Positions 21,726 through 53,121 of a stretch of DNA of 64,000 bases are shown piece after piece. Position numbers and translations under genes: made by a program. The notes beneath the pieces are model-generated. The model worked only from the letters and a program-made list of their open reading frames with translations. It ran no database searches and was not told the origin of the DNA. Source of the DNA: an uncultured Selenomonadales bacterium (lineage in GTDB: Bacteria > Bacillota > Negativicutes > Selenomonadales > Selenomonadaceae); assembly GCA_946408105.1 (NCBI GenBank), contig CAMJQS010000001.1, positions 4,077 through 68,076 of the forward strand, written 5' to 3'. Position 1 is the first letter of the stretch, and each line of letters begins with the position of its first letter.

Positions 21726-23340
21726 AAAATTTTTGTTGCCTGTCCAAATAATTTTCTTGTCGGCCGGCGTGATTTATTGGCAAGTTTTTTTCAAGTTCGT
21801 CGAAGAGGCGGACGTGCGCTTCGTCATGAATTTGGGAAAATATATTTTGGAGCACGGCTTCCCGCACGTCGACCCGTTCACGATTCACGAAAATTTACAA
21901 CTCGTGGCGCAGCAGTGGTTAAGCGGAATTTTGTTTTGGGAGGCGTACAAAAATTTCGGCGTCAACGGACTTTTAATCGTCGATATGATTTTCGGGGCGG
22001 CGACGGTTTTAATTTTTTGGCGGCTGTGTCTTTTCGTCAGCAACGGAAATAAAATTTTGTCGTTCGTGTTGAGTTTCGCGGCGGGGCTCCTCTACTCGAT
22101 GATGGTCGTGCCGCGCCCGCACATCATTTCGGCGACGTTGCTTTTGACGGAAGTTTTTTTCTTGGAAAAGTTCACGCGCACCGAAGACGCAAAATTTTTA
22201 ATCCCGCTGCCCGTGTTGAGCGTCGCGCTGATAAATTTTCACGCGGCCATGTGGCTGATGTCGTTGGTCGTTTGCTTGCCGTTCCTTTTCGTGAAAAATT
22301 TTCGCCACATAAAATTTTTGCTCGCCGCCATGCTCGGAATTTTTTTCTGCGGATTTTTAAATCCTTACGGCCTCGACGCGATGACTTACGTTTTGCGCTC
22401 TTACGGTGTCGCTTCGATTAATGCGAACATTCCCGAAATGTTCACGCCGAGTGCACACGGCTTGCAGGGAAAATGTTTTTACGTCGTCGAAACGTTTTTG
22501 ATTTTTTCTTTGGCGCGCGCAAAAAAAATTCCGTGGCGATATATTTTTTTGAGCGGCGGAATAACTTTCATGACGATAATGCACGGGCGCAATTTGGTTC
22601 TGTTTTACTTCCTGGCGACGTTCCCGCTTGCTTACGTGTGGAGAGAATTCACCGCGGAAAAAATTAAACTCGACAAAAAATTTTTGACGGGAATATTTTT
22701 TCTGTTCGTCGCCGCGAATACTTTAATGGTCGTGACCGTCCTGCAAGAAGGTCTCGAAAAAATTTCTGCGCCGTTGGAAATTTTATTTTTTGCGGCGGTG
22801 CTCTTCATGCTGTATGTTTTGCTCGTGCTGAAGGCCGACGGAAGAATTTTTCACCCGACGATTCTCCCGCGAAAAATTTTGTCGTTGCTTGCCACGCTGT
22901 TTGTCGTCAGCGGAATTTTTTTGATGACGATTGCCGCCGACCAAACCAAGCCCGCTCACACCTACACCGACGCGATAAAATTTTTGCTCCGCACCGAACG
23001 CCCCGAAAATATTTCGCTTTACGCTCATCAAGGTATCGGCGGGCTGGCCGGCAGCTTCGGGATAAAATATTATATCGATTCGCGCTCCGAAGTTTTTATT
23101 AAAGAAAACAACGGCCGCAAAAATATTTTCCAAGAGTATTTGGACTTCAAGGACGGCAAAATAAACTACAAAGATTTTTTCGGCCGCTACAACTTCACGC
23201 ACATAATCTTGACGAACGAGGATCCGTTCCTTTTCGATGAGCTGTCGAACGACAAAAATTTTCGCGTGATTTACGAGAGCGAACGCGTCGACGGTTCAAA
23301 CGTTATCCGTTGCAAAGTTTTTGTTCCAAAGAAGGATTGA
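21718..23340 (+). CDS. Large polytopic membrane protein (GT-C/ArnT-like glycosyltransferase suspected)
   Basis: 540 aa, >10 hydrophobic segments; ATG overlaps upstream stop (ATGACTAA). Confidence 0.65.
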   Translation: MTKKFLLPVQIIFLSAGVIYWQVFFKFVEEADVRFVMNLGKYILEHGFPHVDPFTIHENLQLVAQQWLSGILFWEAYKNFGVNGLLIVDMIFGAATVLIFWRLCLFVSNGNKILSFVLSFAAGLLYSMMVVPRPHIISATLLLTEVFFLEKFTRTEDAKFLIPLPVLSVALINFHAAMWLMSLVVCLPFLFVKNFRHIKFLLAAMLGIFFCGFLNPYGLDAMTYVLRSYGVASINANIPEMFTPSAHGLQGKCFYVVETFLIFSLARAKKIPWRYIFLSGGITFMTIMHGRNLVLFYFLATFPLAYVWREFTAEKIKLDKKFLTGIFFLFVAANTLMVVTVLQEGLEKISAPLEILFFAAVLFMLYVLLVLKADGRIFHPTILPRKILSLLATLFVVSGIFLMTIAADQTKPAHTYTDAIKFLLRTERPENISLYAHQGIGGLAGSFGIKYYIDSRSEVFIKENNGRKNIFQEYLDFKDGKINYKDFFGRYNFTHIILTNEDPFLFDELSNDKNFRVIYESERVDGSNVIRCKVFVPKKD

Positions 23341-51106: not shown

Positions 51107-51153
51107 CAAAAAAAGTTTTAAGGACAGTTTTCAATTCAGGGAAGGTGATTAAC

Positions 51154-51960
51154 ATGGCAGGAATAAATTCTTTGGGCGGCCTCGCGAATTCTGCCTGGCT
51201 CTTTAACTCGAACAATCAAAAACAAAATTCAATCAATCAGCTGTGGAGTGCTTACGGAAATTTTCAATCGAACGCGACGAGCGCACTTGCCGGGCTGACT
51301 GAAGTAAACGCCGGCCTCAAAAATGTTTTGGCCAGCTACGACGACGCGAAGAATGCTTTCCAATCCGAATTCTCGGAGGCAATGGAAAACTTGAGCGCGT
51401 CCGCCGACAAACTCAAAACTTACAACTTCAACGTGGAAAAGGAAGGCGCGATAACCAATACGACCTCCACCGACGACAAAGGCGTAACGACCACGACGAC
51501 AACTTACAGCAAAGACATGCAGGCGGCTCTCGACACCGTGAAAAATTTCGTCGACGATTACAACAGCGCGGTAAAATTTTTCGGCGAACACTCCACCGTT
51601 TCCAAACGCATTGAGCAAATGGCGACGACCTTCGGCGACACAAGCTATCGTTCTTCGCTCTATTCGTCAATCGGTTTGATGACGGGCGCGGACGGTTCGT
51701 TGACAATCGACGAGACAAAACTTGCCGACACGATTTTGAACAATCCCGATAAAGTTTCTTCAATCCTCGGCAAGGACGGCCTGGCGGGCAAAGCGGAAAG
51801 TCATATCAGTTTCGCCAACAGCCAAGCCGATAAACTTTTCCCGACCGCCAAAGAAATGCTCGGCGACCAACTCGACACAGCCTCGCTTTACACCGGCAAG
51901 GCCTATCGAAACATGACGGCTTACAGCAACATGGGCAACTTGATTAACATGATGTTCTGA
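51154..51960 (+). CDS. Short FliD-like flagellar filament cap protein (268 aa)
   Basis: ALDTVKNFVDDYNSAVKFF...SSIGLMTGADGSLTIDETKLADTILNNPDKVSSIL matches the FliD C-terminal domain pattern; the central domains of canonical FliD are absent. Confidence 0.55.
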   Translation: MAGINSLGGLANSAWLFNSNNQKQNSINQLWSAYGNFQSNATSALAGLTEVNAGLKNVLASYDDAKNAFQSEFSEAMENLSASADKLKTYNFNVEKEGAITNTTSTDDKGVTTTTTTYSKDMQAALDTVKNFVDDYNSAVKFFGEHSTVSKRIEQMATTFGDTSYRSSLYSSIGLMTGADGSLTIDETKLADTILNNPDKVSSILGKDGLAGKAESHISFANSQADKLFPTAKEMLGDQLDTASLYTGKAYRNMTAYSNMGNLINMMF

Positions 51961-52027
51961 AAAATTTTTGCTCGAAATAAAAAGTGCTCGTCGAAAAGTG
52001 ACGGGCATTTTTTTTGGAGTGAGGAAG

Positions 52028-52528
52028 ATGATAAGAGAGCTTGCAAAAAAATTGGCGGCGTTCACGGAGCTCGTCGGCTGCGTGATAATCGAATTAAAAT
52101 TTCGGCGCGGCAAGTTTGAATCAAGCGCGGAAATTTTAAAAAATCATTCGGCGATGGCTCTGGTTCGCGTGCGTTCGTCGGAGGCGGAACTTTTGCTCAA
52201 GCTGATTCGTCCGCGCGAAGAAATTCAATCGGCACTGGGCAACAGAATTCAATCGACGGAAAAAGTTTGGAGAATTTTTACGGCGTCGGAAATTTTTGCC
52301 TTCGCGGACGAGGCCGGCGACGAAAATAAAATTTTCCGTTTCAACCCGCCGATTGTCCCCGCGCTTTTGATTTTGGAAACGCTCTGCTCGGAATTCGCCG
52401 CGAACTTCATCAAGCTCAAGTTCAAAAATTTTATCACGGCGGGCGAGCCGCTCTCCTTGTCGGTCGTCGGCAATCGTTTTGAAATTAAAAGTGCGGGCGT
52501 CAAAAAAATTTCGGGCGAATTTTATTAA
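52028..52528 (+). CDS. Hypothetical protein with degenerate MaoC/hotdog-like C-terminal half
   Basis: FAFADEAGDENKIFRFNPPIVPALLILETL resembles the MaoC FAxxSGDxNPIH...HG segment; RBS GGAGTGAGGAAG. Confidence 0.45.
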   Translation: MIRELAKKLAAFTELVGCVIIELKFRRGKFESSAEILKNHSAMALVRVRSSEAELLLKLIRPREEIQSALGNRIQSTEKVWRIFTASEIFAFADEAGDENKIFRFNPPIVPALLILETLCSEFAANFIKLKFKNFITAGEPLSLSVVGNRFEIKSAGVKKISGEFY

Positions 52529-52530
52529 AC

Positions 52531-52567
52531 AAAAAAACCTCGGACGATTTGTTCCGAGATTTTTTTT
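52531..52567. terminator. Bidirectional terminator between convergent genes
   Basis: A7 - CTCGGA-CGATTTGT-TCCGAG - AT8. Confidence 0.8.
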
Positions 52568-52580
52568 CGGAGGAGGGTTT

Positions 52581-52907
52581 TTAGCAGATGAAGTCTCTGT
52601 TCCTGTAGTTGTGAATCGCGGTGTTCATGGCTTCGGTTTCGGTGAGGGTGCGAATCTTTTGCCCTTGGCGGTCGAGGAGGAAGTACTCGTTGTCGTTGAA
52701 GCCGCCGTGGTCTTTAATCTTCACGCCGCAACGGAAGAGGATGTCGCGGAACTGTTCGCGCTGCTGGCCGGCGTTGCCGTCGAAGCGGAAGCCTGTTTCT
52801 CTGGTGAACCTGTTCATGTCGTCGTAGGTCTGTGCGAGGGTGCCGCCCGCCACATTGTCGAGTTCTTCGTCTTTGAGGATTTCGTCTTTGAGAATTTCTT
52901 TTGCCAT
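52581..52907 (-). CDS. Double-glycine-leader polypeptide precursor (108 aa; predicted 86-aa hydrophilic mature part)
   Basis: MAKEILKDEILKDEELDNVAGG|TLAQTYDD...; leader matches the LxxxELxxVxGG export-leader pattern; strong RBS AAAGGAGAC and TATAAT promoter. Confidence 0.7.
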   Translation of the reverse strand: MAKEILKDEILKDEELDNVAGGTLAQTYDDMNRFTRETGFRFDGNAGQQREQFRDILFRCGVKIKDHGGFNDNEYFLLDRQGQKIRTLTETEAMNTAIHNYRNRDFIC

Positions 52908-52953
52908 TTTAATCTGTCTCCTTTTGTAAGGTGTTGAAATTTTTTTCCTGTTT

Positions 52954-52982
52954 ATTATACGTCAGCCGGAGGATTTTGTTAC
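52954..52982 (-). promoter_or_regulatory. Promoter P1 of the GG-leader gene
   Basis: Minus strand GTAACA - 17 nt - TATAAT. Confidence 0.55.
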
Positions 52983-53047
52983 AGCTTTGAAAAAAATTTT
53001 TTCGGCTCGCGGCGTCGGAAGATGTCTTTTAAAATTTTGTTCGTCAT
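52979..53047 (-). other. 22-codon relic ORF MTNKILKDIFRRREPKKFFSKL, a duplicated and truncated 5' end of the GG-leader gene
   Basis: Preceded by AAAGGAGGC and a second promoter copy; first 8 codons parallel MAKEILKD; stop codon lies in the -35 of P1. Confidence 0.5.
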
Positions 53048-53092
53048 TTTAATTTGCCTCCTTTGTCTTTGCTTGAATTTTTCTTTCTGCGT

Positions 53093-53121
53093 CTTATACG
53101 TTCGCCGAAGAATTTTGTTAC
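53093..53121 (-). promoter_or_regulatory. Promoter P2, a duplicate of P1
   Basis: Minus strand GTAACA - 17 nt - TATAAG, same spacing and flanks as P1, 140 bp upstream. Confidence 0.5.

Follow-up and report, generated by a model that had tools for sequence, protein, structure and literature searches.

ABC (ATP-binding cassette) transporters that contain a peptidase (PCATs) are usually seen as pumps for bacteriocins and pheromones. For class II microcins, the export route consists of a PCAT together with a membrane-fusion protein and a channel like TolC (PMC12219008), and a cassette of three genes, matched by the models TIGR03794, TIGR03796 and TIGR03797, has been tied to dispersed families of NHLP and Nif11 precursors (Haft et al., 2010; PMC2887384). 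Here we describe a 108-codon gene in a stretch of 64,000 nucleotides (the window; GenBank assembly GCA_946408105.1, contig CAMJQS010000001.1, positions 4,077 to 68,076) from an uncultured Selenomonadales bacterium, a rumen Selenomonadaceae metagenome-assembled genome (MAG; 61% complete, 232 contigs, numbered C below). An initial annotation of the window had proposed an orphan polypeptide exported by means of a double-glycine (GG) leader. We found that the gene, as far as its sequence can tell, most likely encodes a leader-cleaved, secreted mini-protein of a co-regulated secretome.

The gene product is like the class II microcins (MccV, or colicin V, with CvaAB-TolC) and the bacteroidetocins in being an unmodified small protein of a diderm with an N-terminal GG signal, and the genome holds the same export set of a PCAT, a membrane-fusion protein and a TolC-like open reading frame (ORF). 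Mature proteins of the microcin class have about 10 kDa or less; the mature part of MccV has 88 amino acids, against 86 in the present cargo. In contrast to class II microcins and bacteriocins, however, no immunity gene lies beside the present gene, and the cargo is hydrophilic and predicted to be globular where theirs is a Gly/Ala-rich, membrane-active core. Microcin leaders have 15–18 residues, against 22 here; moreover, the present genes are dispersed outside the exporter operon, and the exporter is of the two-ABC NHLP type. With the NHLP and Nif11 systems the present one shares the three-gene cassette, large scattered paralogous families, the GG site and a leader conservation that is attributed to handling by the transporter. 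NHLP and Nif11 precursors have a long, protein-like leader, homologous to Nif11 or to the alpha subunit of nitrile hydratase, and a short, modified core rich in Cys, Ser and Thr, whereas the present family has a short leader, a large folded cargo (86 aa, two Cys) and no modification enzymes. The model TIGR03798 reaches 14.9 bits on the present protein (cut-off 32.3), only its last 15 positions (the GG region) match, and the leader is not of the long type.

Results

The gene, its leader and its homologues

In the window, we found the 108-aa ORF with the sequence that the initial annotation had quoted, beginning MAKEILKDEILKDEELDNVAGG. The classical GG consensus is LSxxELxxIxGG, and leaders of this type have about 15–30 residues, hydrophobic at –4, –7 and –12 and acidic at –8; the consensus reportedly goes back to Håvarstein 1995 and Dirix 2004. 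Read from the sequence, the leader has every consensus position (L–12, E–8, L–7, V–4, G–2 and G–1), which confirms its annotation as a GG leader. Curated bacteriocin, Nif11 and CTB leader models match it only below threshold, and it is disordered in the AlphaFold2 model (predicted local distance difference test score, pLDDT, of 41). The ribosome-binding site and the terminator that had been annotated are both present; the former is also kept upstream of paralogues and orthologues, and the latter is common to the gene and a convergent 186-aa ORF. An RNA contig of 258 nt from a sheep-gut metatranscriptome spans positions 52612–52869 with one mismatch, and its word depth is 46 as compared to 4–20 for the flanking genes, a rough measure that indicates the presence of RNA and not its level. 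Sequencing runs that contain the gene's DNA come from gut metagenomes, those of sheep and goat among them. The 108-codon gene is real, conserved and expressed.

A protein search returned 192 homologues, and the named ones all come from Selenomonadaceae MAGs. Among 116 aligned homologues (collected by a search seeded with shared five-residue words), mean pairwise identity is 0.85 in the leader and 0.39 in the cargo, and pairs with less than 30% cargo identity are still 0.86 identical in the leader. G21 and G22 are invariant in 116/116 homologues, as are L16 and E9; the loss of the GG motif among homologues, which the initial annotation had raised as a counter-argument, was thus not seen in any of them. 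The 15-nt tandem duplication noted earlier is present in the leader, but it is not recent: because EILKDEILKD is nearly invariant across the 116 homologues, the repeat is by its conservation an old, fixed feature of the leader. Orthologues occupy the same place, directly after rsmE-mtaB, in several species (loci L005, L022 and L024), and a search at the level of the class found the family in no family besides the Selenomonadaceae. The 108-aa gene is a member of a large family of small, folded proteins from rumen Selenomonadaceae, a family so far undescribed.

A candidate exporter in the same genome

A profile search found no C39 peptidase domain on the window's contig, in line with the annotated absence of a C39 exporter from the window. 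The wider search of the genome that the annotation had recommended did find a PCAT, on contig C5, where a single operon encodes a membrane-fusion protein, an HlyD protein (TIGR03794, 223 bits, cut-off 156), two ABC subunits and a TolC-like ORF. The combined peptidase, permease and ATPase subunit matches TIGR03796 at 976 bits (cut-off 853) and has a C39 domain (PF03412, E = 2.9e-34) with the catalytic-Cys motif QMEATEC, and the second ABC subunit matches TIGR03797 at 726 bits (cut-off 709). The TolC-like ORF lies downstream in the operon, and its orthologue at locus L017 matches the Pfam family OEP. By its gene content, the C5 operon is a complete NHLP-type export operon, fitted for a diderm envelope. 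On C23 there are another two C39-like ABC genes, which are of the HlyB type, with TIGR01846 above cut-off, and were not taken as the likely exporter. These adjacent genes (C23:1227-10015) encode type I secretion ABC transporters whose N-terminal domains are C39-like; two large ORFs (424 and 567 aa) come next, and no substrate gene was identified there.

To relate the cargo family to this exporter type, we compared their occurrence across 151 Selenomonadaceae genomes. The family is present in 40 of them, with up to 24 copies per genome, and TIGR03796 scores above cut-off in 37 of these 40 genomes as compared to 30 of the 111 family-negative ones (odds ratio 33, p = 1.6e-13, uncorrected for phylogeny). 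The three family-positive genomes that have no TIGR03796 match above cut-off are 82–90% complete. In the high-quality genomes of the genus, the exporter is present in 6/6 genomes with the family, and it is missing from 3/4 genomes without the family. In 16 related genomes, the distance between a family member and a TIGR03796 PCAT is about 3–13 kb, although the window copy itself is unlinked. The exporter loci that we inspected have the order membrane-fusion protein, HlyD, ABC1, ABC2 with a GG gene within a few kb, and there is a TolC-like gene in one of them and a gene for a sigma factor of the extracytoplasmic function (ECF) type in three. The description of the gene as an orphan is therefore not upheld: at least 14 GG-type genes, this one included, are found in the partial genome (up to 24 per genome in the genus), its homologues adjoin NHLP-type exporters, and it is an orphan by position only.

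A cargo-only hidden Markov model (HMM), from which the leader was trimmed, matches the GG genes next to exporters (E = 9e-17, 1e-11, 1e-7, 1e-7 and 3e-6), and also own-genome paralogues with a different leader type, such as the one on C32 (1e-6). The link between cargo and exporter is thus independent of the leader. An hhalign comparison of alignments A2 and A4 was discarded as uninformative, the two alignments sharing members, and the leader-trimmed HMM test was used instead. From its mass of 10.2 kDa we estimate a cargo volume of about 12,400 cubic ångströms, and by this estimate the cargo fits the cavity of about 15,000 cubic ångströms reported for PCAT1 (PMC6959990). On these lines of evidence, a C39-peptidase ABC exporter very probably takes the 108-aa product as its substrate, and we consider the export step, taken by itself, quite probable.

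At locus L020 (G088:C5:1-5000), at least eight leader-peptide genes of several kinds lie downstream of another NHLP-type exporter, among them two Nif11-like precursors with long leaders and proteins of about 100 aa with ...ELDNVVGG leaders. Given this mixed array, one exporter type seems to serve very different cargo families.

The cargo is predicted to be a folded domain

The mature part has 86 aa (10.2 kDa, isoelectric point 6.6) and, as had been claimed, it is neither Gly/Ala-rich nor hydrophobic: its grand average of hydropathy is –0.96, Gly and Ala make up 12.8%, and there is no hydrophobic segment, the highest 19-residue hydropathy being –0.2. With no such segment and a globular prediction, the cargo is indeed unlike pore-forming class II bacteriocins and microcins. 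The two cysteines that had been noted are present, at position 60 and at the C-terminal position 108; only in the closest subfamily are they kept, and even there not always as a pair. A disulfide between Cys60 and Cys108 is unsupported, and orthologues lose either cysteine independently. By its substitution rates, the cargo is under purifying selection (ratio of nonsynonymous to synonymous rates 0.07–0.40, six orthologues).

With the family alignment as input, AlphaFold2 models the cargo confidently, at block-mean pLDDT values of 72–94, with helices at residues 24–38, 46–59 and 90–102 and strands at 62–65, 74–78 and 84–88. The model of a divergent paralogue, P0121, which aligned at 36% identity in a profile comparison, has the identical α-α-β-β-β-α order, and in both models the leader is disordered and detached from the fold. 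When we compared both models with the PDB and one with BFVD using Foldseek, we found no fold match (best E 0.33–0.88, TM-score ≤0.38), and weak matches to chemokine-like β-β-β-α elements were set aside as noise. When the protein and ten paralogues were scanned against Pfam and NCBIfam, nothing matched the cargo and leader models matched only below threshold, and a PDB profile search by sequence gave nothing below E = 0.79. A phmmer search with the mature part alone against 1.8 billion representatives gave 7 matches, and the intact small proteins among them all have GG leaders; a 3341-aa repeat protein (P0126) in the same list is a spurious, low-complexity match to GVK..GG. The conserved cargo positions are G39, G61, D66, G68, G69, N73, Y75 and G82, and these residues look structural rather than catalytic. 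Taken together, the searches support the view that the cargo fits no described family, and the models predict a soluble, folded domain whose fold has not been described so far.

A promoter motif shared with other GG genes

At least 13 further GG-type genes are found in the genome, on C6, C24, C32, C39, C48, C77 (five in tandem) and C136; they have two leader types, and nearly all are wedged between housekeeping genes. The upstream regions of the own-genome GG genes share a module with the core GTAAC-N16-CGTATAA. A loose form of this motif has 17 sites in the genome, as compared to about 1.9 expected from base composition, and 16 of the 17 directly precede a leader-peptide ORF. The strict form occurs twice in the 64-kb window and not once in 100 shuffles, and its two sites precede the gene and a stub upstream of it. 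Other genomes of the genus likewise keep the motif before orthologues and paralogues. The TATAAT promoter that had been annotated for the gene is present, but the annotation was incomplete in that the site is part of this family-wide, ECF-type motif. An AAC in the –35 and a CGT in the –10 element are a hallmark of ECF-sigma promoters such as those of Bacillus SigW, SigX and SigM, and the invariant CG before TATAA argues, at the level of sequence, for this reading over that of a plain sigma-70 site.

In related genomes, a sigma factor of the ECF superfamily is encoded beside the exporter (TIGR02937, 114 bits, cut-off 43), lying 3–5 kb from the PCAT in at least 9 genomes, and the two co-occur in the genus (odds ratio 15, p = 5e-4). 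An orthologue of this exporter-linked sigma factor is partly present in the own genome on C204. In 3/4 of the sigma loci examined (L026, L028 and L029), the sigma gene is followed by a conserved peptide of 63–64 aa, which is preceded by a GTAAC-N16-CGTATAA promoter and is duplicated in L028. The peptide has a leader of about 49 aa (MTIxxRFxQTDFSQFSKIK...LDELDxVAAAG) and a variable tail of 13–15 aa; it could be a pheromone precursor, or an anti-sigma factor that is cleaved or exported by the exporter's peptidase.

The second strict site in the window (53094..53121, minus strand) precedes the 22-codon stub. Locus L005 has an intact 106-aa GG gene, P0121, at the position of the stub, and L022 and L024 have nothing there. 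Because intact P0121 occupies the same position, the stub is, by comparison of these loci, a deletion remnant of a tandem neighbour.

Among the other GG genes, the motif precedes a 50-aa GG precursor on C6 (about 22826-23130, plus strand) with a cationic, amphipathic core of 26 aa (KIGKPWVPPGSRDLINKIKDFIKRIF), and on C39 (10385-10627, minus strand) a peptide with a ...LDAVCGA leader and a proline-rich core of 44 aa. Both look like conventional antimicrobial peptides. On C6 (22406-23130), two GG-leader genes lie on the opposite strand inside an oligopeptide (Opp-like) ABC operon, between its ATPase genes and its permease genes; like the window copy, they are self-contained promoter-gene-terminator cassettes in housekeeping DNA. 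The five tandem genes on C77 (198-2447) are of the second leader type (MATREENIKKINDELEKLSDEELEQVAGG), and the motif DWDW or DWKW stands at the C-terminus of several of the encoded cargos. One copy in this array is truncated, and another has an internal second leader-like repeat.

Neighbouring genes and features

The neighbours of the gene are mtaB and the convergent 186-aa ORF, and the latter is not co-inherited. The 186-aa ORF matches no Pfam family, and in L005 and L022 its place is taken by a different gene; we therefore rejected it as an immunity gene. The adjacent radical-SAM gene was likewise rejected as a peptide maturase, since it is mtaB itself (UPF0004 and Radical_SAM), in conserved synteny with rsmE. 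At 51145-52528 (plus strand), the 186-aa ORF is preceded by a gene whose 271-aa product has a FliD C-terminal domain (E = 1.6e-11); this pair is kept in L024, and a dicarboxylate symporter gene is found instead in L005 and L022. The coordinates of the gene and its associated features are collected in Table 1.

Table 1. Features of the GG-leader gene and related elements (positions in the window unless a contig is named).
Feature	Position	Strand	Details
Precursor coding sequence, 108 aa	52581..52907	–	ATG start; stop codon included in range; from the ORF list and translation
GG leader, residues 1–22	52842..52907	–	MAKEILKDEILKDEELDNVAGG; cleavage predicted after G22
15-nt tandem repeat coding EILKD-EILKD, within the leader	52869..52898	–	GAAATTCTCAAAGAC / GAAATCCTCAAAGAC, 14/15 nt identical
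Cargo, residues 23–108	52584..52841	–	hydrophilic domain, predicted α-α-β-β-β-α
Ribosome-binding site AAAGGAG	52918..52924	–	10 nt 5' of ATG; read directly
Candidate promoter GTAAC-N16-CGTATAA	52954/52955..52982	–	family-wide motif; also reads GTAACA-17-TATAAT, 10/12 matches
Remnant of upstream paralogue (by locus comparison)	52979..53121	–	second copy of promoter, 5' untranslated region and ribosome-binding site; 22-codon stub MTNKILKDIFRRREPKKFFSKL (MTNKILKD...)
Bidirectional intrinsic terminator	52539..52558	both	hairpin CTCGGA..TCCGAG, T-runs on both strands
Locus of the peptide that follows the sigma gene, own genome	C204:2117-2704		L026

Discussion

We propose that the gene is transcribed from a dedicated ECF-type promoter, GTAAC-N16-CGTATAA, which would be common to nearly all GG-leader genes of the genome; its probable reader is the ECF sigma factor whose gene lies beside the exporter in relatives. 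The C39 domain of the NHLP-type exporter on C5 (TIGR03796) would recognise the 22-residue leader and cut after Gly22, and the 86-residue cargo would then be pumped across both membranes of this diderm Firmicute with the help of the other products of the operon: the TIGR03797 subunit, two adaptors (HlyD and the membrane-fusion protein) and the TolC-like channel. Sequence, co-occurrence and gene neighbourhood are the grounds on which we infer this processing and export step. Once outside the cell, the cargo is predicted to fold into a soluble α-α-β-β-β-α domain. Our guess is that it most likely acts by binding something, because it has no conserved catalytic residues. We also favour, again as a guess, a role in bacterial competition in the rumen, in which the cargo would be an unmodified, protein-sized, non-pore-forming analogue of bacteriocins and microcins, because the family is multi-copy, fast-diverging and decay-prone and shares its motif with short cationic and proline-rich leader peptides. 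We regard this explanation as a whole, from the ECF promoter through PCAT export to a folded, competitive cargo, as reasonably probable, and we put forward the competitive role itself only tentatively.

Several observations weigh against this explanation. The exporter is on another contig than the 108-aa gene, and the exporter operon itself does not have the strict promoter motif, which can moreover also be read as an ordinary sigma-70 site. The seeding of the homologue search by shared five-residue words favours conserved leaders. In a sample restricted to the genus (41 genomes, mostly partial MAGs), the association between cargo and PCAT has an odds ratio of only 4.3 (p = 0.07), and in six family-positive genomes of the genus no PCAT was detected, all six being incomplete or contaminated. 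For a bacteriocin role in particular, there is no immunity-like gene beside the gene or its orthologues or within the tandem paralogue arrays, which leave no space for one, and 0/17 motif sites precede a membrane protein. The cargo is hydrophilic and near-neutral, with no membrane-active character, and GG-leader proteins of Treponema denticola that are secreted showed no killing (PMC11879956).

The absence of immunity genes near the copies that we inspected would also suit an exported signal or recognition mini-protein, sensed by kin or neighbours in a quorum-type circuit around the ECF sigma factor. A soluble, folded cargo with no catalytic residues fits this idea, as do the linkage of a regulator, the ECF sigma factor, to the exporter and the pheromone-like peptide with its variable 13–15-aa tail, which follows the sigma gene and has the same promoter. 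However, it is unusual for signals to come in tandem arrays, with frequent pseudogenes and 10 to 24 divergent paralogues per genome, 86 residues is far above the size of known GG-leader pheromones, and no receptor kinase or other sensor lies near any inspected copy, so that we consider a signalling role unlikely. The same copy number and decay are not expected of a structural or surface component of the envelope, and nor is the absence of the family from many genomes of the same genus. Such a role could be modelled on MAM of Faecalibacterium, which is leader-cleaved by a PCAT, assembles on the surface and illustrates that abundant, folded proteins can reach the envelope by way of PCATs (PMC12184118); it would agree with the missing immunity gene and with an RNA contig deeper than the contigs of the neighbouring genes. 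MAM is helical, though, and has a different leader motif, MMMPAN...VxGG (PMC12184118), and no similarity of the cargo to any known protein was found in sequence or fold. We therefore regard an envelope role as quite improbable.

That the protein stays in the cytoplasm and has an N-terminus that merely resembles a GG leader would agree with the lack of an exporter within the window and with the sub-threshold scores of the curated leader models. It is hard to reconcile with a leader that is far more conserved than the cargo, with the invariant GG, with a family that co-occurs with and adjoins C39 exporters, with a leader that is disordered and detached from the fold in both models and with the occurrence of the same promoter before classical short GG peptides; we consider this the case with only the slightest probability. 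A secreted, leader-cleaved mini-protein thus remains the reading that we prefer.

The family adds folded, hydrophilic proteins of about 10 kDa to the probable substrates of PCATs and supports an emerging view, drawn from CtA, MAM and the Treponema proteins, that such exporters secrete small proteins too. With the shared ECF-type promoter, a whole secretome can be found in a genome from 28 bases, and the promoter suggests a regulatory circuit of sigma factor, small peptide and exporter. A broader picture, which we find doubtful, is that of an undescribed secretion regulon of the Selenomonadaceae, in which an ECF sigma factor encoded next to the NHLP-type PCAT would drive dozens of promoter-leader-cargo cassettes, with a new α/β mini-protein fold as the main cargo, and in which the 63–64-aa peptide may couple sigma activity to the exporter, either as an exported pheromone or as a FlgM-like anti-sigma factor. 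The Selenomonadaceae are abundant among the fermenters of the rumen; should the cargo act in competition, it would represent a new protein class that shapes rumen communities and a new scaffold for secreted binders. Because the predicted fold has no structural relative, a solved structure of the cargo would be expected to add a new fold family.

Among described GG-leader proteins, CtA of Clostridium thermocellum, the 90-residue substrate of PCAT1, is similar in size, in its GG leader (24 aa) and in a specificity that resides in the leader only (PMC6959990). Unlike the present gene, CtA is encoded beside its PCAT in a monoderm host, and its cargo is described as unstructured (PMC6959990); the PDB profile search detected no sequence similarity between CtA and the present cargo. 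MAM of Faecalibacterium duncaniae is similar in its GG-type leader, its folded, non-bacteriocin cargo with presumed PCAT export, its fold that is absent from the PDB and its lineage-restricted family (PMC12184118). MAM is, however, essentially a single, dominant, helical envelope protein, whereas the present family is α/β, multi-copy and diverse; the MAM motif MMMPAN-x(8-11)-VxGG does not occur in the present sequence, and the predicted fold is α/β as compared to the three-helix core of MAM.

The blp and com regulons of Streptococcus pneumoniae resemble the present system in having many GG-leader genes, one exporter pool and one regulatory motif (PMC6016807, PMC7595303). There, the regulator is a two-component system with a peptide pheromone, whereas an ECF sigma factor is implicated in the present family, and the blp peptides are short and come with immunity genes. 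The proteins of Treponema denticola with a bacteriocin-type signal domain also come from a diderm, have a GG leader and are secreted with no detectable bactericidal activity (PMC11879956). In contrast to the present family, they have 167-614 aa and an unrelated sequence, and they are clustered with lipoprotein genes beside the transporter. The export mechanism is thus already known, as the PCAT or class II microcin route, and what is new is the lineage-specific use of folded mini-protein cargos, arranged as dispersed promoter-leader-cargo cassettes under a putative ECF-type promoter.

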